Shown: positions 2,488 through 19,180 of the stretch, piece after piece
How the letters are laid out: every line of letters begins with the position of its first letter
Position numbering within the stretch: position 1 is the first letter of the stretch
Assembly: GCA_963736115.1 (NCBI GenBank)
Contig: CAVTNR010000024.1
Location: 1-21,790, forward strand
DNA length: 21,790 nucleotides
DNA from: an uncultured bacterium
GTDB lineage: Bacteria; Zhuqueibacterota; QNDG01; DTFT01
Direction of reading: 5' to 3'
Notes under the pieces: model-generated
What the model saw: only the letters and a program-made list of their open reading frames with translations
What the model was told of the DNA's origin: nothing
The model's database searches: none
Translations under genes and position numbers: made by a program

Positions 2488-2994
2488 TCAGGGCCCGATA
2501 TGCACCATGTCGTACTGAAAATCCTCGCGGTCAAAGTACGCCTCATCCCGCATGCACAGGTCGAATTCCCCCTTCAGCAGGAAATAATGCCCGTGTTCCA
2601 TGCTGGCAAGGTACTGGAGCACTTCGCGGAGGCCCCGGTCCTCCACGTTTTGGGAGAGGCTGTCATAGAACTCTTCGGCCGCTTTTTCCGCGTCCATCGC
2701 GATTTCCAGGAGATCCGGAACCGAGTGGGACTCATTCAACGACAGGGAGAGCGCGGGAAGGATGGACCGATCGGATTCGGCGGGTTCACGCCCCTTCGCC
2801 ACTTTCCGGTGAATTGCCGTCAGCAGTTCTCGGTGCCGCTTCTCCTCGTCCTCGAGGAAACGCATCTTTTCCTTGAGCATGAAATTCCGGATCTGGCTGT
2901 TCAGCTTCCGGTAAACCTCCGTCGCGTCGGTCTCGGAACGGACCGCCATGGAGAGGGCTTTCTCAACGGACAGGGAAGAAAGGTCGATCGGCAT
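2488..2994 (-). CDS. Ferritin-like (rubrerythrin/erythrin family) di-iron protein without a rubredoxin domain
   Basis: AVRSE...Y, EEKRH, AMDAE...FY, MEHGH give two E...ExxH repeats; GGAGG RBS. Confidence 0.85.
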   Translation of the reverse strand: MPIDLSSLSVEKALSMAVRSETDATEVYRKLNSQIRNFMLKEKMRFLEDEEKRHRELLTAIHRKVAKGREPAESDRSILPALSLSLNESHSVPDLLEIAMDAEKAAEEFYDSLSQNVEDRGLREVLQYLASMEHGHYFLLKGEFDLCMRDEAYFDREDFQYDMVHIGP

Positions 2995-3012
2995 GCAGCT
3001 TCCTCCCCCGCC

Positions 3013-3411
3013 TCAGCCTGAGATTGCGACCGGCTTTTCCGACTGCCACAGCCCGTGAATATTGCACAGGGCGAGGACGGTCAGGACGCCGGGTTTCGTG
3101 ACTTTCACCGTCGCCGTCACCTGGGAGGCGGCGTGCACGGGTCCCTGGTTCGGCCCTTCGGCGCTTTCTCCATGCGCGCTGAATTCGAAATGACCCACCT
3201 GAAAGGGGAATTTCGCGCCGTCCGCCTGAAAATAGAGGTCGATCCAGCGGATGTGATGCTCGGTGGTGTTCGGGTGCGCGATCTCGCGTCCGACGGTGAT
3301 TCGCACATCGAACCCTTCGCCGGGCTTGACCGCCTCGGCGCATTCGATGAAAGGCACGTGTTTCTCCGCCTTCCAGTCGGCGGACTGAATCGATTCGGTC
3401 AGTTTTGACAT
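3013..3411 (-). CDS. sor: 1Fe superoxide reductase (neelaredoxin, class II SOR-like)
   Basis: EKHVP, HPNTTEHHIRWI and CNIHGLW give the full His4-Cys ligand set; there is no N-terminal desulforedoxin domain. Confidence 0.93.
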   Translation of the reverse strand: MSKLTESIQSADWKAEKHVPFIECAEAVKPGEGFDVRITVGREIAHPNTTEHHIRWIDLYFQADGAKFPFQVGHFEFSAHGESAEGPNQGPVHAASQVTATVKVTKPGVLTVLALCNIHGLWQSEKPVAISG

Positions 3412-3436
3412 TTCCTCTCCTCAACGATTTCTGTCA

Positions 3437-4075
3437 TCAACCGCACGGGCAGAGGGACATTCGACGTCCGGCTGATCGGACGATTGAAAGAACGCGCGTC
3501 GACGCCGTCGCGTCAAGCATTTTCGTCATGTTGGGGATCGAGCTGTAATACGGGCTAAGCTTGAGGGCCACCGGGATTTTTACGCTGCGCTTCACCTCCA
3601 GCGCGAGTCCGGTGATCATGTCCTCGACCGCAAGCGCGTCGACGTCGGGATCCGTGGGGATGTAATAGGTGTTGAGTTCAAGCCCGTCCGCGCCCGCCTG
3701 TTCGATTTCCCGGGCGTAGCGGATCCATCCGCCCGTGGAAACGCCGTTCAGACTTCCGAGAACGGGGATGCCCGTCGCTTCTTTGGCCTTCCGGATCAAT
3801 TCCAGAATCCCTTCCGCGCCCATGTGGAAATCGCGGATGTCCGGAAAATTGCTCGGCGATTCCCAGTATGTCTCCGTTCCCTGGTTCAGGTTCCGATCCA
3901 GTCCGATCTCCTCGATCCGGATCTGCTCTTCGAAAACGGAATGCATCACCACGGCCGACGCCCCTGAGTCCTCCATTTGACGGAGATTGTCGAGAGATTC
4001 GCTCAATGGCGAGGGGGATACCACCAGCGGATTTTTCAGGGAAATCCCCATGTAGGTTGTGGACAGATCAGCCAT
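3437..4075 (-). pseudogene. Dihydroorotate dehydrogenase-like flavoprotein (PFOR-associated), 3'-truncated or degenerate
   Basis: LSTTYMGISLKNPLVVSPSPLS, GASAVVMHSVFEEQI, GADGLELN and IPVALKLSPY match the family. After MLDAT the DNA shows frameshifted remnants of GVDALVLFNRFYQPD, then roughly a third of the expected protein is missing. Confidence 0.75.
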
Positions 4076-12050: not shown

Positions 12051-12554
12051 TTAAAATTTTACAAACTTCGACTTCGCGACCCCGCACACCGGGCAGGCGT
12101 CCGGCGCGTCGCCGGCCACCGTGTACCCGCACACCGGGCAGATATGGACGGCTCCGATGGCAAGATCCTTGTTGTCCTTCGCCGCCTGCTTGGCTTCGGT
12201 GTACATCGCCGCGTGTATCTTTTCGGCCTCGATGGCGTAATGGATGGTCCGGATCGCCTCTTTCTCCGCCTGCAGTTTGGCCACCGCGTCGTAAGCGGGA
12301 TACATCTCCTCCACTTCGAAATTTTCGCCGTCAATGGCGGCCTGCAGGTTCTCAATCGTGCCCGCGACCTCGCCGAGGGCTTTGAAATGACCCGTGGCAT
12401 GGACCTGTTCGGCGAATGAAATGGCGCGGAACAGCCGCGCAATGTTCGGCTTGTTTTCCTCTTCGGCGCGTTTGGCGAAGATCAGATACTTCATGTGCGC
12501 CTGGCTCTCCCCCGCGAATGCGTCGTGCAGGTTCTTTTCCGTCATCTTTTTCAT
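12051..12554 (-). CDS. rbr: Rubrerythrin
   Basis: AFAGESQA, EQVHA, GENFE...MYP, AEKIH, and a C-terminal rubredoxin-like CPVCG...CPVCG. Confidence 0.95.
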   Translation of the reverse strand: MKKMTEKNLHDAFAGESQAHMKYLIFAKRAEEENKPNIARLFRAISFAEQVHATGHFKALGEVAGTIENLQAAIDGENFEVEEMYPAYDAVAKLQAEKEAIRTIHYAIEAEKIHAAMYTEAKQAAKDNKDLAIGAVHICPVCGYTVAGDAPDACPVCGVAKSKFVKF

Positions 12555-12611
12555 GCGGTTTCCTCTGGTCTGTGATGCTTCATTGTTACCCCGGACCCCG
12601 GGCGGAGCCGG

Positions 12612-13370
12612 TCATTCGAAAAGCCGTTTGATCCCGAATCCGAACTTCAAGTCCTGGTTCGGCGCACCCCGCATCATGCGGCGGAGACCGATGTCCGTTG
12701 AATTCCCGATCTGGAAAAGAAAATGATGTCCGTATGTCTTGAACTGAACCCCGGCCGTAAAACAGTCATACGACCGGTAACCCTCCCATGAACCCCGGTC
12801 CGCGCGCGGGAAAAATTCGCCGATCAGGCTGATGTTCCGGGTGACGGCGCAGTCCAGGCCGAATCCGAACCCGGTTTTGCGGTTGTCCGAGTCGAAACCA
12901 GCGTTCACGACCGGGGTGAGCCGCGCAACGGTCGGACCCTGAAGATCCACCCGGCCGAACCAGACTGCTTCCCGGTCCTCTTTCCAGCGACCTTCAACGA
13001 AACGGCCGGATTTGAACGACACCCAGTCGAATCCCGCCTGCGCCCTGCACCCGGGGATCAGGGGAAAGAAGGAATAACCGGCGCCGAGACGGTATTCGCT
13101 GTTCAGGAATGTATGGTGCAGGCGAAACTCGACTCTATTCAACGGGCTGCTCCGGAATCCCAGGTCGACAGTGGCGCCCTCGGCCAGACCGAAGAAGGAA
13201 TCGAGCGGTTTGTCGTCGATTTCGCCGTTAAAGCGGTGCTGCACGACAAACTGCGCCTGTCCGGGCTCCAGAGCCGCGGGCCGCTCGAGATTGAGCATGC
13301 TGTTCTCGACGGCCGAGGCATTGATGGCCAGGAACAGCAGGGGAACGGAAATCAGATGGATGGATCGCAT
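12612..13370 (-). CDS. Outer-membrane beta-barrel protein, DUF5777-like
   Basis: Signal peptide (..INASA|VE); HRF...FFGL, TYGHHFLFQIGNS and terminal FGFGIKRLF match my recollection of DUF5777; alternating amphipathic strands. Confidence 0.72.
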   Translation of the reverse strand: MRSIHLISVPLLFLAINASAVENSMLNLERPAALEPGQAQFVVQHRFNGEIDDKPLDSFFGLAEGATVDLGFRSSPLNRVEFRLHHTFLNSEYRLGAGYSFFPLIPGCRAQAGFDWVSFKSGRFVEGRWKEDREAVWFGRVDLQGPTVARLTPVVNAGFDSDNRKTGFGFGLDCAVTRNISLIGEFFPRADRGSWEGYRSYDCFTAGVQFKTYGHHFLFQIGNSTDIGLRRMMRGAPNQDLKFGFGIKRLFE

Positions 13371-13391
13371 GGCTCGGCTCCGGATCGTCCG

Positions 13392-13739
13392 TTACAGACG
13401 GATCGTTTCTTTTTTCTTTCCGAACACATTACACACGGTGGTCGCCTCGACCGTGTCTCCCGGCTTCAAATCGATGATTTTATAGGAGACGGTCTGGGCC
13501 GCGCCGTCTTCCTGGCTGGCGAATTCCTGCTTGATGATTTCCTTTCCGTTCAGTCGGACGGATATGGCCTGAATGTAATGCTCCGCCGGCTTTTTGGTTT
13601 CATGCGCGGCGGTGATTTTAAGAATCCGGGAGACAGGATCAAACTCAAGCCGGACCTCGGAGGCCGGATGGGCCGAGGCGCCGGTCAGGCCGGCCAGGGC
13701 GAATGCCGTGATCAGAAATATCCTGAGCGGTCGGTTCAT
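13392..13739 (-). CDS. Small exported protein with a superoxide reductase/desulfoferrodoxin-like Ig fold
   Basis: Start ATG 13739 (AGGAG RBS); 23-aa Sec signal ending ASA; mature HPA...AHETKKPAEHYI...VCNVFG parallels SOR HVP...HPNTTEHHI...CNIHG. Confidence 0.65.
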   Translation of the reverse strand: MNRPLRIFLITAFALAGLTGASAHPASEVRLEFDPVSRILKITAAHETKKPAEHYIQAISVRLNGKEIIKQEFASQEDGAAQTVSYKIIDLKPGDTVEATTVCNVFGKKKETIRL

Positions 13740-13756
13740 GGAAAGTCTCCTGTCCT

Positions 13757-14170
13757 TTACTCGTTCACGGCCGCGGTCTCGCAGCCGGGACATACACCGA
13801 AGTATTCGAGCCTGTGCCAGTGAACCCGGTAGCCGATCGTGTCTTCGACCTGGGAATAGGAAAATGACTGTCCCGATGGCGGAACATCTTCGACTTTTCC
13901 GCAGATCAGACAGCAGATATGGTCATGGTTCCGGAGATCGCCGTCGAAAAGCCCAATCCCCTTCCCGACGGACAATTCCCGTATCCGGCCCTCTTCCTTC
14001 AGCATGGCCAAATTGCGGTAAACGGTTCCAAGGCTGATGGAGGGCAGATGCTTGCGCGCCTCTTCGAAAATCCACCCGGCAGTCGGATGGCATTTGGTGG
14101 CTCTGAGAATCTGGAGAATAAGATTCCGCTGTCTGCTGGACTTGAATTTTCGAGTGGATGTCATGCTCAT
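13757..14170 (-). CDS. perR: Fur-family transcriptional regulator, PerR-like
   Basis: SRQR, HPTA, ISLGTVYRNL, FDG, HDHICCLICGKVED (Asp at the PerR position), GVCPGC; heads a peroxide/superoxide defence cluster. Confidence 0.8.
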   Translation of the reverse strand: MSMTSTRKFKSSRQRNLILQILRATKCHPTAGWIFEEARKHLPSISLGTVYRNLAMLKEEGRIRELSVGKGIGLFDGDLRNHDHICCLICGKVEDVPPSGQSFSYSQVEDTIGYRVHWHRLEYFGVCPGCETAAVNE

Positions 14171-14181
14171 AAGCTTGAATC

Positions 14182-14210
14182 ATTATAGGATGAAATAAAA
14201 ATAACGTCAA
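14182..14210 (-). promoter_or_regulatory. sigma70-type promoter for the perR island
   Basis: Minus strand TTGACG (14210-14205), 17-nt spacer, TATAAT (14187-14182), inside an AT-rich gap. Confidence 0.85.
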
Positions 14211-14228
14211 TAATAATAATCGTTATTA
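14209..14228. promoter_or_regulatory. Fur/Per-type operator overlapping the -35 element
   Basis: AATAATAATAATCGTTATT (14209-14227) matches the Fur box GATAATGATAATCATTATC at 15/19; 7-1-7 repeat TAATAAT-C-GTTATTA at 14214-14228. Confidence 0.75.
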
Positions 14229-14252
14229 ATTTAGGGAAAGTTTGACTTAAAG

Positions 14253-15086
14253 TCAAGCGGATTCGCTCTCAATTGCGGCTGAAATATACCCGACTGTATA
14301 GGATCCTGAAGATTTTCCCCGGAATTCGTCTTTTGAATTGCTTCTGTACAAGGTCCGTAAACGGTTGGCGCCCATCTTCATCGCTGTCTCAAGCACAATG
14401 GATATAGGCACTTTTCCGCACACCGTGCAGGTATCCGGCCTCAGAGTATTCCGGATCCGTTCCAGTTCCAGGGTTTCCAGCGCTTCCGCCACACGTTGGT
14501 CCCCTTTTCGAACTGATTCGTAATTGTCCAGATGATGCATATCGCTGCTGGCGATGAGAACGGCTTTATGCCCCCGGAGTGCGTGGAGAAGTGCCTGAAC
14601 CGCGTTTTCAACTCGCCGCACATCGCGGTTCCCGATCATCAGCGGCAAAAGGCGGAACGGCTTCAGAACCGTCTGCAAAAAAGGAAGCTGTATTTCGATG
14701 GAATGTTCTTCTTCCTGATCCAGTTCCGACACGTGCGTGTCGCGCCCCATCGCCTCGATCAGGTCCCGCGCGACTGGAACGCTTCCGAGCGGCGTTTCGT
14801 ACGCGGAAGCGGCGTGGACCATGATGTCGCCTGAGGGGAACCCGTGGAAGGGTGAAAGAACCGCCACGATTTCGACATCCCGTCCCTCCAGAAGACGATA
14901 CCCGTGGGCCGCGGTGAAACCCGAATAGACATATCCGGCGTGCGGGCTGATCAATCCGATGAGGCCGGTCTTCGTCGGACCCGGCTGCGGCACGGCGTCC
15001 AGAAACGAGCGGATCCATTTCCGGAGTTCTTCGGCGTCCCCGGGGTACCATTCCCCGGCGAGAACCGCATGTCGAACAGGCCGCAT
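14253..15086 (-). CDS. amrB: MEMO1 family protein (AmmeMemoRadiSam system protein B)
   Basis: Likely start ATG 15086 (GGGAGG upstream). Motifs AGEWYP, ISPHAGYVYSG, ETPLG, EHSIEIQLPFLQ, IASSDMHH, TVCG, VGY. Confidence 0.88.
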   Translation of the reverse strand: MRPVRHAVLAGEWYPGDAEELRKWIRSFLDAVPQPGPTKTGLIGLISPHAGYVYSGFTAAHGYRLLEGRDVEIVAVLSPFHGFPSGDIMVHAASAYETPLGSVPVARDLIEAMGRDTHVSELDQEEEHSIEIQLPFLQTVLKPFRLLPLMIGNRDVRRVENAVQALLHALRGHKAVLIASSDMHHLDNYESVRKGDQRVAEALETLELERIRNTLRPDTCTVCGKVPISIVLETAMKMGANRLRTLYRSNSKDEFRGKSSGSYTVGYISAAIESESA

Positions 15087-15110
15087 GGCTTCCTCCCGTG
15101 CGGGCGGCAA

Positions 15111-15992
15111 TCAGCAGAAAACATTGAGGGCGTGCGGAACGACTTCGATGCGGACCGGCAGACCGCCCAGCACATCGCCGTCGATCTGCGCGATCGTGGG
15201 ATGGTCGGAATGAAATTCCACGCGCCGGACCCGGTAGTATCGGACGTGCTTCATCCTCAGGTGCTGGCGGTAAAACAGGCTCAGGACGAAACGGGCCAGC
15301 CCCAGCTGGGAGCGTCCCTTGTAGAGCAGAACGTCCAGAAACCCGTCATCCACTTCCGCGAAGGGAGTCATTTCGTGGGATCCGCCGTAGAAGTGGGTGT
15401 TGGCGGCGACGACGAAAGTCGCTCGCTCCTGCACCTTTCCATTGTCCAGCAGAACGCGAATCTCGACCGGCCGGTATCCGATAAAATCCTTGAGCCCCGC
15501 CCAGACATAGGCATAGCGGCTGATGATTTTCTTGATGCGTTTGCTCGTGCGGCTGATGGCGTAAGCGTCGTATCCGCATCCCGCCATCATGGCGAAGTAG
15601 CGGCCGTTGGCCCGGCCCAGGTCGATGCGCCGGATCCGGCGGCGGGCGATGATTTCGGCGGCTTTGACCGGATCGAGCGGAATCGACAACTCGCGGGCCA
15701 CCACGTTACTGCCGCCGAACGGCAGAATGCCGAGCGGCACGTCGCTCGGCATGATGGCGTTGATCGCTTCGTTCGTTGTCCCGTCTCCGCCCGCCACGAG
15801 GATCGCGTCGAATCCCTCGGCGAGCGCCTCCTGCGTTACGGGCAGGACTTCTCCCTCCCGCTTCGTGAAATGCACCGAGAGCTTGAATCCGTTCTTTCGC
15901 AGGATGTCCAGGGACGGCTTGAGATACCGCTTGATCTTCCGCGGCTGGGACTCCCGGTTGACGATGACTTTTGTCCGGAGAGTTCCCTTCAT
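15111..15992 (-). CDS. Diacylglycerol kinase family lipid kinase (YegS/DgkB/BmrU)
   Basis: VIVN, AGGDGTTNEAIN, LGILPFGGSN, IDLG, AGCGYDA, ANTHFYGG, DDGFLDV, QIDGD. Confidence 0.9.
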   Translation of the reverse strand: MKGTLRTKVIVNRESQPRKIKRYLKPSLDILRKNGFKLSVHFTKREGEVLPVTQEALAEGFDAILVAGGDGTTNEAINAIMPSDVPLGILPFGGSNVVARELSIPLDPVKAAEIIARRRIRRIDLGRANGRYFAMMAGCGYDAYAISRTSKRIKKIISRYAYVWAGLKDFIGYRPVEIRVLLDNGKVQERATFVVAANTHFYGGSHEMTPFAEVDDGFLDVLLYKGRSQLGLARFVLSLFYRQHLRMKHVRYYRVRRVEFHSDHPTIAQIDGDVLGGLPVRIEVVPHALNVFC

Positions 15993-18900
15993 CTGGCGGT
16001 CTGGGCCGCTCCCATGAAACGCTGAACCTCGCCGGTCCGGCGGTTGTAGGCGGAAATGGAAGTGCGGGGGCCGTATCCTGTGACGGCCAGCGCGGTGAGG
16101 GATCCCTTTTCCTGGGGCATCATGACGACGGAGTTCAGGTAAGTTCCGTTTTCATCCAGAAAATGGATACCGTTCCGGTCCGTGACGAACAGTTCAATGG
16201 GCCGGTGGAAGCGGTCTCCCTGAATGTCGACGCCTTCCAGGTCCTCGGCAACCGCAATGCGGGAAGGATAGCAGAAGCGGGCCGGCTTGCCGACATCCGC
16301 CGGGCCGTTCTCTCCGAAACCGCCGAAAGAGCGGAGACAGAGGCCGTCCGGGCCGAAGATGAAAATCGAGTGGCGCGCCCAGTCCACCACATAGACATTG
16401 CCCCTGGAATCCGCGGCGACGCCTTCCGGGCTCTTCAGCCGGGTCGTATCCGGGAACTGCACCCGGAACTCCTCCTCGGCGGCGTGGTTGGCGGCGTCGC
16501 GGTAGAGCAGAATCTGCCCCTTGCGGGCCTGGGTTACCAAATAACCCTGGTGAACCCGGGAATAGGCGAAATCCCGGTACGCAACGTTGGACTGGAACGC
16601 CCGGACGAGGCCTGTGGCAGCAAGGCCCGCGCCGCCTCCGGGAACGAAAACCGCGTTGCCGTCGAGCCGCTCGGTGAAACGCATCAGGTCGGCGTTACCG
16701 CGGCTGTCGGCGCGCACGAAGGACAGGGCCGGCACCAGAGAAATCACCAGACGCGTCTCACGCGGTACCGTAAATTTCACGGAACGGAAAACCGGGTAGA
16801 ATCCCTCGCCGGTGACGCGGATCGAAGCGGTGTCGCCGAGGGAATAGGTTTTCCGGACCGTCCCGGTGCCGTCCAGTTCGACGGGTTCGCCGTTGACGTA
16901 GACGGATGCGCCGAGGCCGGCGCCGTCCGGGAACGCGACGCTCAGCACCAGCGTCGAGAGAACGGCGCCGGTTCGCTCCCGGATCCCGGCGTTCAGCGCG
17001 GCGAACGCGGCGGAACGCGGACGGATGCCCGGCGTCGGAAACGCGGACGGGGTGATCGCATCCTTCCGTATCCCGTACCGGAGCATCAGGGACAGTCCTT
17101 CCTGAAGAATGGCCGTCTTCTGGTAAACGGACTCGACGAACTGTTCAACCGAGACGTCGCCCCCGCGGCTCCAGCGCTCGGGGTACTGAATCGCGTCGAG
17201 TCGCACACCGCTCAGCACGTCGGTGCCTCCGGCCAGCGCCTCCCGGGATTCATCGATGGCGCGGTTCGCGGAAGCGGCGGCGTTGGCCCAGATCTCTCCG
17301 CCCGATGCGCCTTCGGTTTTGCGGATGACGGCCTCGTAGCACTGCCGGGCGGCCGCGGTTTTCCGCTCCCGGCGCAGGATCTCGCCGAGGAAATAGGCCG
17401 CACGGACACTCTGGCCCTCGTTGACGAGCGAAATAAACAGCCCCCGCGCGTCGTCGAACTCGTCCGCTGCGAGGAGGCTTCGCGCTCGGAGGTATTTACC
17501 TTCAAGTTCAAACTCGCCTCTGCAGTCCTTGACCCGGTCGGCTGCTTCTTTGAACCGGGCGCCCTTGTTTTTGACTTGGATCTCGGCGTCCAAAAACCGG
17601 TACAGGCCCTGGTAATACCGGGTTTCGGACTCGCGTTTGCTCTGGGTGAACTTGAACAGGGGCTCGATCTTATTCAGAATGTTCCGCCGGTCCTGTCCCA
17701 CGACCTGGTTGGCGCGCACGAGCAGGCTGCGCACGATTCCGAAAATGGCGTCGATCCGTGCGTCCGGGGAGCCCTCGAGGTTCTGCCAGACGTTTTTGGG
17801 ATCGAGCAGAACGGCCGCCAGGTCCCGGAGCGCGGCTTTTTTCTCACGGACAAAAGCGGTCTCGGGCTTGAACTGATCGGCCTCCGCGAGGAACGCGCGG
17901 AGCGCGGATCCGGAACCGGCCGATACGGCCATCTCGAAAGACATGGTGAGGAGCTGGAGTCGCGCGTCTTCCCGCAGAACCCGCATGCGGAAATCCCCAG
18001 CGGATGCCTCCGTTCCGGTCAGAAAAGCCTCGAATGCGGCTTTGGCCTCCTCCGCTCCGGTCAGTGCGTTCAATCGGCCCGCCCAGAAACGGGATTCGGG
18101 CACGGCTGTGAAGGCCGGCGTCAGGTTCTGCTCGACGAGCGCGAAAATACGGTTGGTGAAGGTTTCGTTGTCCCTGAAACCCGCGCTGTTGGCGATGTCC
18201 CGGCTGTCGCGCAGGCCGCGGTAGAAGCTCCGCTCCGCCGCGGATGCGGACGCGGCCTGGCTTTCGAGGAGGCGGTCGAGGGCTTGCCGATCCTGCGCCG
18301 ATCCGCTGTTCAGAAAAGCGTGAAGTCCGGCGGCCAGATCGGAGGCCGCCAGCACGGGCTGGGCATTGAAGGAGACCGAGTCGGCGAGGCCCGAGTAGGC
18401 GGCGCGGCGGAAGAAATCCGCCGCGGTCGCGGAAACGGTTGATGCCTTGCGCGGGTCGCGGAGAGATGAGAATAGCGGTCCGGATACGGATTCATAGACG
18501 CATCCCCGCTCGTACGCGGCGTCGCGGTGTCGGATCAGGGCCGCGGTCCTGAGATCCGCGGAAGCGGCCGGGTCCGAGGCCGCGGCGCGGAATGAGGCGG
18601 CCGCGGCGATGCACCCGTCCACGGCCTTCTGCGCCTGGAAGTTCTGAGCCAGTGCCGCGATGCGGAGGCGCTGATGCTCCGCGAGCCGGAGCGCGGTCTC
18701 GCCCTCCATGTACAATGCGGCCACTCGCAGGGAATCATCCGAGGACTTGGACAGGTCGCGGAAGTTCGCGTGCGCCTTTTCCAGGTCATCCGCTGCGCCG
18801 CCTCTCAGCTCGGACACGCGGAAAAAAGCCCAGGCTTTCTTATACCGCGCGTTGTCGACCAGGTAGGGATTGGATTCGCGAAGGGGTACACGCTTCAGGC

Positions 18901-19180
18901 ATTCGTCGAAAGCCGCCAGAGCCTCGTCGAAATGGTTCACGGCATCAGACGCGTTCGCGGACGCGAGCCCCAGGTTGTACCGGCTTTCGCCGATGTAATA
19001 GTATCCCAGTTCGGCTTCCGCGGGCGTGCGTTTCATCCAGGCCCGGATGGAATCGATGGCGGCCTGGTATTCTCCGCGGTTGAAAAGCTGGAGCCGGCTG
19101 GAGCCGAAAAAGGGCTCCTGCGCCGACGCCGCGGCGCAGAAGAGCATCGCGATAACCGTGAAGACCTTCTGGATGCGCAT
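15989..19180 (-). CDS. Secreted TPR/alpha-solenoid protein with a PEGA-like domain and C-terminal NHL beta-propeller
   Basis: Signal peptide (..AAASA|QE); TPR-like segments (YYYIGESRYNLG, ARYKKAWAFF, AAYFLGEIL); PEGA-like GASVYVNG...IRVTGEGFYP; NHL repeats SPEGVAADSRGNVYVVD and FCYPSRIAV. Confidence 0.72.
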   Translation of the reverse strand: MRIQKVFTVIAMLFCAAASAQEPFFGSSRLQLFNRGEYQAAIDSIRAWMKRTPAEAELGYYYIGESRYNLGLASANASDAVNHFDEALAAFDECLKRVPLRESNPYLVDNARYKKAWAFFRVSELRGGAADDLEKAHANFRDLSKSSDDSLRVAALYMEGETALRLAEHQRLRIAALAQNFQAQKAVDGCIAAAASFRAAASDPAASADLRTAALIRHRDAAYERGCVYESVSGPLFSSLRDPRKASTVSATAADFFRRAAYSGLADSVSFNAQPVLAASDLAAGLHAFLNSGSAQDRQALDRLLESQAASASAAERSFYRGLRDSRDIANSAGFRDNETFTNRIFALVEQNLTPAFTAVPESRFWAGRLNALTGAEEAKAAFEAFLTGTEASAGDFRMRVLREDARLQLLTMSFEMAVSAGSGSALRAFLAEADQFKPETAFVREKKAALRDLAAVLLDPKNVWQNLEGSPDARIDAIFGIVRSLLVRANQVVGQDRRNILNKIEPLFKFTQSKRESETRYYQGLYRFLDAEIQVKNKGARFKEAADRVKDCRGEFELEGKYLRARSLLAADEFDDARGLFISLVNEGQSVRAAYFLGEILRRERKTAAARQCYEAVIRKTEGASGGEIWANAAASANRAIDESREALAGGTDVLSGVRLDAIQYPERWSRGGDVSVEQFVESVYQKTAILQEGLSLMLRYGIRKDAITPSAFPTPGIRPRSAAFAALNAGIRERTGAVLSTLVLSVAFPDGAGLGASVYVNGEPVELDGTGTVRKTYSLGDTASIRVTGEGFYPVFRSVKFTVPRETRLVISLVPALSFVRADSRGNADLMRFTERLDGNAVFVPGGGAGLAATGLVRAFQSNVAYRDFAYSRVHQGYLVTQARKGQILLYRDAANHAAEEEFRVQFPDTTRLKSPEGVAADSRGNVYVVDWARHSIFIFGPDGLCLRSFGGFGENGPADVGKPARFCYPSRIAVAEDLEGVDIQGDRFHRPIELFVTDRNGIHFLDENGTYLNSVVMMPQEKGSLTALAVTGYGPRTSISAYNRRTGEVQRFMGAAQTAR

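Follow-up and report, generated by a model that had tools for sequence, protein, structure and literature searches.

The stretch of DNA analysed here (the window) comprises 21,790 nt of contig CAVTNR010000024.1 from an uncultured bacterium, and its minus strand encodes a small exported protein whose mature domain resembles superoxide reductase (SOR). We tentatively read this protein as a redox-active metalloprotein that acts in the periplasm under oxidative stress and probably reduces superoxide, and we give this reading somewhat less than an even chance. One-electron carriers are encoded next to the gene in related loci, which argues that the protein is redox-active, and the accompanying genes for PerR-like regulators, rubrerythrin, ferritin and peroxiredoxin point to a role in oxidative-stress defence.

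The start of the exported gene was placed at position 13739 because AGGAGA lies 6 nt upstream and the start is identical in all close homologues (10/10). A longer open reading frame (ORF) starting at 13793 was rejected as the gene, since both the AGGAGA box and the homologue starts point to 13739. The signal peptide opens with a basic n-region (two arginines), continues with a core of 12 hydrophobic residues and ends in the c-region TGASA, in which alanine occupies both −3 and −1. No RR pair was found in the precursor N-terminus (MNRPLRIF), and a twin-arginine signal was also absent from the consensus of 150 family members. A lipoprotein was considered and rejected because the signal peptide carries no cysteine and thus no lipobox. 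Signal peptidase I should cut after Ala23, leaving a mature protein that begins with His-Pro. Mature residues 1, 23, 31, 53 and 80 correspond to residues 24, 46, 54, 76 and 103 of the precursor, and Phe83 to Phe106. The mature protein contains three histidines in total (1, 23 and 31) and a single cysteine (80); they run in the order of the SOR ligands, and CNVFG, with Phe83, stands in place of CNIHG. A preliminary description of this DNA, made from the sequence alone, had pointed out the ORF, the signal peptide, the His/Cys positions and the CNVFG change, and it was correct in every detail. Its claim of export was borne out by the Sec-type signal peptide ending in ASA. It was also right that the Glu-Lys pair ahead of the first His is absent: the mature chain starts at this His, and the Ser-Ala of the signal peptide stands in that place.

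We ran a profile of close homologues exhaustively over 1.84 billion representatives (clusters at 50% identity). At E<=1e-3 the search recovered 1447 representatives, of which 621 passed <=1e-10; with few exceptions they were 100-140 residues long. A word-based search found ten close relatives only, 63-83% identical. Conservation was assessed in an alignment of 160 sequences (11 close sequences and 149 other listed representatives). His46 was kept in 159 sequences, and His54, Gln76, Cys103 and Gly107 were invariant (160/160 each), which confirms the predicted conservation of the His/Cys residues. Position +1 was His in 146 sequences and position +2 was Pro in 143. The expectation that homologues keep His at +1 thus held for 146/160 and failed for the other 14. 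The residue before +1 was Ala in 131, Ser in 14, Gly in 10, Cys in 3 and Pro in 2 sequences, so that A/S/G/C precedes the +1 residue in 158/160 members. At −3 we found Ala 61, Leu 38, Val 29, Ile 11 and Ser 8 times. Cleavage two residues earlier would leave roughly every second member with L/V/I at −1, and cleavage directly before the His is predicted family-wide because it is the only site permitted by the −3/−1 rule. The −1/−3 pattern therefore favours the cut before His that the preliminary description had proposed. The position of the fourth SOR His was variable (Phe 64, Ser 21, Gly 20, Tyr 15, Met 8 and His 3). Just past the Cys loop, Lys/Arg was frequent at positions 108 and 109 (96/160 and 105/160), which would suit an anionic substrate. 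In the databases, family members are labelled "hypothetical protein" or "desulfoferrodoxin (superoxide reductase-like protein)", and the Atlas clusters nearest to the exported protein belong to Omnitrophota and Cloacimonadota. A search of the open literature, with supplements outside its scope, found nothing on the exported family, on DUF5777 or on a comparable periplasmic SOR.

SORs bind Fe through a His4-Cys site, and a Glu-Lys pair precedes the first ligand His (EKHxP motif). The window also encodes a canonical cytoplasmic SOR outside the cluster, which matched the solved SOR structure of T. maritima (E 1.3e-43) and carries the motifs AEKHVP, AHPNTTEHH and CNIHG. The resemblance of the exported family to SOR is more remote. 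Among 150 family members, 41 reached the Pfam Desulfoferrodox model at E<=0.01 (best 4.5e-5), and the exported protein scored 13.8 bits against TIGR00332, with a cut-off of 61.9. A relaxed hhalign alignment placed His46, His54 and Cys103 of the family on SOR His46, His52 and Cys116, and Phe106 on His119, SOR residues that we take to be iron ligands. This alignment supports the residue correspondence suggested previously, including that of Phe106 with the fourth His. It also revealed a two-residue insertion between the two histidines of the exported family (spacing of 8 vs 6 in SOR). The global mode of hhalign gave a nonsensical alignment, and sequence comparison yielded no reliable match between the N-terminal His and the first SOR His.

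The structure of the exported protein was predicted with AlphaFold2. The precursor model had a predicted local distance difference test score (pLDDT) of 79.8, with the signal peptide below 50. The mature-only model had a pLDDT of 95.9 and a predicted template modelling (TM) score of 0.86, and its first ten residues reached a pLDDT of 96. The best Foldseek match of the mature model was the 1Fe-SOR of Giardia (4d7p; E 4.7e-4, TM 0.78/0.75). The same SOR came first in a Foldseek-independent scan of 48,161 chains (Z 11.1, root mean square deviation 2.4, 85/92 residues, 19% identity), SoxZ came second (Z 10.8) and generic immunoglobulin (Ig) and fibronectin type III domains reached at most 9.9. These searches bear out the claim of a SOR fold, in the sense of a SOR/SoxZ-like fold. 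The fold alone proves little because the Z margin over generic Ig folds is small. Since fold and motifs agree, it is reasonable to assume that the exported protein descends from the SOR/SoxZ superfamily and is a strongly diverged member of this group of β-sandwich proteins.

The strands of the mature model span residues 5-11, 16-22, 33-40, 43-49, 58-64, 73-80 and 85-91. From this strand order and the antiparallel run of consecutive sandwich strands, residues 1-4, 23, 31, 53 and 80-84 of the model would lie in loops at one end of the sandwich, the end at which the iron of SOR is bound. The Pro at +2 has no amide proton, and on the grounds of coordination chemistry this should exclude a Ni-hook or an amino-terminal Cu- and Ni-binding (ATCUN) type of site. 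The Ni-hook analogy drawn in the preliminary description is thus not upheld, and residue 1 could bind a metal only via its amine and imidazole, or via imidazole alone. The invariant Gln76 (mature Gln53), which had not been mentioned before, is judged from its conservation an equally good candidate for the vacant position of the fourth His.

The features of the window are listed in the table below. The exported gene lies 17 nt behind a PerR-like regulator gene, so the earlier statement that it is the first gene behind such a regulator was accurate. The best NCBIfam models for the regulator were PerR (7.8e-30), at 103.7 bits against a cut-off of 180. Five promoter-like sites were found in the region, compared with 1.1 expected. 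The inverted repeat upstream of the regulator, which we consider similar to a Per box or Fur box, adjoins the −35 box of the best of these sites and suggests autoregulation. Promoter and repeat (14182-14228) sit in an AT-rich island of a GC-rich contig. The DUF5777 barrel gene is followed after 57 nt by the rubrerythrin gene, and genes for 2-oxoacid:ferredoxin oxidoreductase subunits come next. No convincing terminator was seen among the first four genes of the cluster. A predicted complex of barrel residues 21-252 with the mature domain scored 0.01, compared with a mark of 0.32.

Table. Positions of the features of the exported gene and its surroundings; positions refer to the window except in the last row.
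Feature	Position	Strand	Remark
Exported SOR-like gene	13392..13739	−	115 aa; MNRPLRIFLITAFALAGLTGASA, then HPASEV...VCNVFGKKKETIRL
Signal peptide, residues 1-23, MNRPLRIFLITAFALAGLTGASA	13671..13739	−	Sec/SPase I type by direct reading
Mature 92-aa SOR-fold domain	13395..13670	−	His1, His23, His31, Gln53, Cys80
Stop codon of exported gene	13392..13394	−	Next gene 21 nt on
Shine-Dalgarno-like AGGAGA	13746..13751	−	6 nt ahead of the ATG at 13739
PerR-like Fur-family regulator, first gene of presumed operon	13757..14170	−	Pfam FUR E 6.6e-21
Promoter-like TTGACG-17-TATAAT upstream of regulator	14182..14210	−	11/12 match; best of 5 sites
7-1-7 inverted repeat TAATAAC-G-ATTATTA adjoining the −35 box	14214..14228	−	Candidate Fur/PerR-type operator
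Exported divergent DUF5777 outer-membrane β-barrel	12612..13370	−	Pfam DUF5777 7.4e-15
Rubrerythrin with C-terminal rubredoxin-like domain	12051..12554	−	Pfam 1.4e-22 and 3.3e-10
Canonical cytoplasmic 1Fe-SOR, outside the cluster	3013..3411	−	Pfam Desulfoferrodox E 6.8e-32
Long DUF5777 loci in other orders	L034 4163-9062; L035 1957-5009; L036 2241-7194		

A search with the close-homologue alignment found 3 genome loci and 9 metagenome loci, which gives a small sample biased to CNVFGKKK-type members. We compared 18 distinct loci (the window, L002-L005, L007, L009, L010, L012, L013, L015-L017 and L020-L024). Those dropped were L006, L008, L011, L014, L018 and L019, each of which encodes the same family protein as a counted locus, and L025, a shorter copy that closely resembles L021. 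A gene for a Rieske protein lies directly upstream of the exported gene in 8/18 loci (L004, L005, L007, L009, L012, L017, L020 and L021). A twin-arginine signal is present on the full-length Rieske proteins of L004, L005, L007 and L020 (and, from an internal start, of L012), and those of L007 and L020 have a clear lipobox Cys. The gene looks split or frame-shifted in L009 (1234-1995, minus strand) and L021 (212-772, plus strand), where an odd, longer ORF is covered only in part by the Rieske domain, and genome G017 gave two separate matches. A PerR-like gene is the direct upstream neighbour in 5/18 loci (the window, L002, L003, L016 and L023) and lies one gene further upstream in four of the Rieske loci; Fur-family regulators occupy the corresponding position in L007, L009, L012, L016, L020 and L023. 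In three loci (L010, L013 and L015) the upstream gene encodes a DUF4405 protein of 77-95 residues, and in two (L022 and L024) the upstream neighbour was unrecognisable. Haem b binding has been demonstrated for DUF4405, for which a role as transmembrane electron carrier was put forward (PMC11334425). Two further proteins (P0281 and P0282, of 367 and 369 aa) consist of a short NQR2_RnfD_RnfE-type membrane domain and a SOR-like domain that still has a signal-like segment of its own; they could be genuine fusions or a read-through in gene calling. The preliminary description had offered two roles, a superoxide-reactive enzyme or an Fe/Cu/Ni chaperone. The electron-carrier neighbours (Rieske, DUF4405 and the RnfD-like fusion) favour a redox enzyme or carrier, and the chaperone half of the proposal is disfavoured.

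Downstream of the exported gene, the divergent DUF5777 barrel was found in 13/18 loci, and it was absent from L013, L015, L022, L023 and L024. A rubrerythrin gene is nearby in 9/18 loci, and ferritin or peroxiredoxin occurs in L004, L005 and L017. Among 60 genomes of relatives, 12 encode the exported family, all of the same order; the 30 genomes that represent the phylum's other orders gave none. The divergent barrel is present in nine genomes of that order, and in all of them the family gene is adjacent on the same contig (9/9). The search for Rieske proteins across the relatives was dominated by generic Rieske domains; the locus partner corresponds to four full-length matches (E<=1e-23), each adjacent to the family gene in one of these genomes, and the split copy in a fifth genome. 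The barrel contains the motifs QHRF near the N-terminus and TYGHHF near the C-terminus, invariant in 12 sequences ~30-84% identical to the window barrel, and similar motifs are visible in canonical DUF5777 proteins. Judged from these His motifs, the outer-membrane barrel may bind a metal or haem. In other orders of the phylum there are long DUF5777 proteins (428-444 aa) with an extra N-terminal stretch of ~160 residues that includes a Cys-x4-Cys-His sequence. In L034, L035 and L036 such a gene is immediately followed by genes for a small lipoprotein-like protein and a Rieske protein, joined in L034 and L036 by genes for cytochrome c and a cytochrome b-c fusion; by gene content this may be a cytochrome-porin-like arrangement.

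In the source genome, which is 87% complete, we found neither Cu/Zn superoxide dismutase (SodC) nor Fe/Mn superoxide dismutase, and the only superoxide enzymes found were two cytoplasmic SORs. The first is the canonical SOR of the window, adjoined by a rubrerythrin-like ferritin-fold gene (2488-2994, minus strand). The contig thus holds two oxidative-stress clusters, one at 2488-4075 and the PerR cluster with its preceding gene at 12051-15110. The other (L033 1486-1938, minus strand; contig C17 of genome G000) has an N-terminal CxxC...CxxC module of rubredoxin or desulforedoxin type, and its SOR domain has the motifs KHSP and CNLHG. Two multihaem cytochrome candidates are encoded elsewhere in the genome. 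A Memo-like gene (14253-15110, minus strand) precedes the regulator and takes the same position in L004, L008, L009, L011, L016 and L023, and a 1063-residue exported protein (15989-19180, minus strand) is matched by a homologue at the corresponding place of L004. A look through sequencing runs for this DNA listed none of RNA, and in the DNA runs listed its share was small.

From the export signal, the fold, the conserved residues and the neighbourhoods, we infer the following course of metal binding, electron flow and reaction. The genes for the PerR-like repressor, the exported protein, the DUF5777 barrel and rubrerythrin would be co-transcribed and induced under oxidative stress. His1, His23, His31, Cys80 and Gln53 are predicted to bind one redox-active metal, for which Fe would be likeliest by homology and Cu would also be possible. 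In the periplasm this centre would be supplied with electrons one at a time and would hand them on, much like the cytoplasmic SOR; the supplying carrier of the relatives may be the Rieske lipoprotein exported by twin-arginine translocation (TAT) or the small DUF4405 haem-b membrane cytochrome. Once reduced, the metal, with an open site trans to Cys, would turn superoxide into peroxide or act on related reactive oxygen species (ROS), and the Lys-rich stretch past the Cys loop could attract the superoxide anion. In its fullest form the proposal is that of an undescribed, widespread class of periplasmic ROS-reducing metalloenzymes in anaerobes, in which signal cleavage would build the site, the amine and imidazole of His1 would replace the fourth His beside two His and an axial Cys on a SOR scaffold, and a Rieske or haem-b protein would feed the enzyme at a DUF5777 barrel. 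That all of these parts hold together is doubtful.

Several findings weigh against the assignment as a superoxide-reducing metalloprotein. The exported protein scored 18.4 bits against the Pfam Desulfoferrodox model PF01880 (E 0.0032), compared with a cut-off of 22.2, and the comparison of the family with a profile of 121 SORs by hhalign gave an E value of 0.0084 at a probability of only 4.8%. BLASTP of the exported protein against the window SOR returned a meaningless 31-residue match (E 0.32), and searches of the Protein Data Bank sequences with the family profiles returned no SOR, the weak matches, among them a nanobody, BAG6 and a PI3K C2 domain, being spurious. Both the fourth His (CxxH) and the Glu-Lys pair, which define SOR, are missing. 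The structural lead of SOR over generic Ig folds is only ~1 Z unit. Furthermore, 14/160 family members have Asn (5), Thr (4), Asp (3) or Ser (2) at +1, and no compensating His was found anywhere in them. The neighbourhoods represent one bacterial order and nine metagenome contigs rather than the whole family. Finally, neither the Rieske partner, the Rieske family nor DUF4405 was found in the 87%-complete source genome.

Among known systems, the exported protein appears to work most like SOR, although it falls below the curated threshold and lacks the His4-Cys set and the Glu-Lys pair, sharing the β-sandwich fold. Like the class II 1Fe-SOR (neelaredoxin, PF01880), it has a seven-stranded β-sandwich (Z 11.1, TM 0.78), two His in the loop past strand 2, a Cys in a CN[IV]xG loop ahead of the last strand and a His-x-Pro-like start just ahead of strand 1, and both are linked to rubrerythrin. 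However, the exported family has a Sec signal, an additional invariant Gln, a longer His-His spacing, a sub-threshold Pfam score and, in all except 3/160 members, no fourth His. The partner of 1Fe-SOR is rubredoxin, whereas the partners here are Rieske, DUF4405 and the DUF5777 barrel. The TAT-SOR class of SORGOdb comprises seven proteins with a complete active site II and a twin-arginine signal, according to PMC3116461. These proteins also have a SOR-type domain predicted to leave the cytoplasm, and they differ from the exported family with its Sec-type signal without RR and its incomplete SOR ligand set.

Processing also exposes an N-terminal His in two other groups of metalloproteins. The His-brace proteins, namely lytic polysaccharide monooxygenase (LPMO), CopC, YcnI and PmoB, bind Cu by His/Asp without Cys, in a T-shaped site where a second His joins the amine and imidazole of the first, and their N-terminal His results from signal cleavage. 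By analogy, the predicted N-terminal His of the exported protein could chelate with its amine along with the imidazole. The His-brace proteins probably have another fold, and no LPMO, CopC or YcnI was among the 50 structural matches listed. The Ni-hook of nickel superoxide dismutase coordinates through two Cys and the backbone amide of the second residue, and its N-terminal His is likewise exposed by processing. It shares with the exported protein a thiolate ligand and superoxide chemistry (putative in the exported protein), while the exported family has Pro at position 2, one Cys and an unrelated fold. In MsrP-MsrQ, a periplasmic molybdoenzyme reductase is fed by a haem-b membrane protein. 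The three DUF4405 loci similarly pair the gene for a small haem-b membrane protein with that for an exported redox protein, which here has a SOR fold and is not a molybdoenzyme. MsrQ-like cytochromes are discussed in PMC11334425.

An alternative that we consider unlikely is that the protein is a periplasmic electron carrier with a blue-copper-like or Fe site, running between the Rieske protein or cytochrome b and the barrel or another acceptor; an extension of this idea, held equally unlikely, is that carrier and barrel form a two-part counterpart of the fused cytochrome-porin conduits. Two His, a Cys and a Gln are the ligand set of stellacyanin-type copper sites, and His46, His54, Gln76 and Cys103 are kept even in members without His at +1. 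The neighbouring genes encode electron carriers, Sec export means metal loading in the periplasm, and a long canonical DUF5777 gene stands directly upstream of a cytochrome c/Rieske/cytochrome b-c operon in 3/3 inspected genomes of other orders, which were picked because a Rieske match shared the contig. However, no cupredoxin was among the top 50 structural matches listed, the nearest fold and motifs belong to SOR, no gene for a terminal acceptor lies nearby, and the PerR/rubrerythrin/ferritin/peroxiredoxin context indicates detoxification rather than respiration. A metal chaperone or sequestering protein for Fe, Cu or Ni seems a little less probable again. It would hold the metal by an N-terminal His brace with a further His and Cys, use the barrel as a channel, and limit Fenton chemistry or deliver metal under oxidative stress. 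Copper-handling proteins, CopC and YcnI among them, are known to have an N-terminal His produced by processing, PerR regulons often hold metal-homeostasis genes, the linkage to the barrel is strict in the nine barrel-bearing genomes of the order, and ferritin is a neighbour in some loci. A chaperone would nevertheless make it hard to explain the one-electron carriers that adjoin the gene in 11/18 loci; the cluster contains no metal transporter, P-type ATPase or target metalloenzyme, and the Pro at +2 would deny the protein ATCUN or Ni-hook binding.

The tight adjacency to the barrel gene could instead reflect a β-sandwich that binds no metal and, for instance, closes the DUF5777 barrel as a plug or lid or helps it assemble, with its His, Cys and Gln being structural or contacting the barrel. 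The Ig-like fold is generic, with 174 chains at Z>=8, and the barrel has invariant His motifs of its own. We hold this improbable, given that the only three His and the only Cys of the protein are the conserved ones, in SOR order and within the motifs xHYI and CN[IV]xG, and that 5/18 loci have no barrel. A SoxZ-like sulfur-carrier subunit is very improbable. SoxZ, known from SoxYZ (2ox5 and 2oxg), shares the fold class and the periplasmic location and gave the second-best structural match, with weak Pfam SoxZ matches in 20/150 family members. SoxZ lacks such a His/Cys set, however, and works with SoxY, and neither SoxY nor any other sox gene was present in any neighbourhood inspected. The exported protein scored 14.4 bits against Pfam SoxZ (PF08770; cut-off 25) and 13.5 against TIGR04490 (cut-off 76), and CN[IV]xG and HxxxxxxxH match SOR rather than SoxZ.

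Strict anaerobes are thought to handle cytoplasmic superoxide via SOR and rubrerythrin; to our knowledge, the protection of their periplasm has largely gone unaddressed. An exported SOR-like family of at least 1447 clusters at 50% identity, which brings its own electron donors and a PerR-type regulator, would make the defence of the anaerobe periplasm directly testable. If the reading as a periplasmic superoxide-reducing metalloprotein is true, signal-peptide processing would build a metal site on a fold without known precedent for it, and the family would give a first functional handle on the DUF5777 barrels and the short DUF4405 cytochromes. The family may protect the outer compartment of oxygen-sensitive bacteria.

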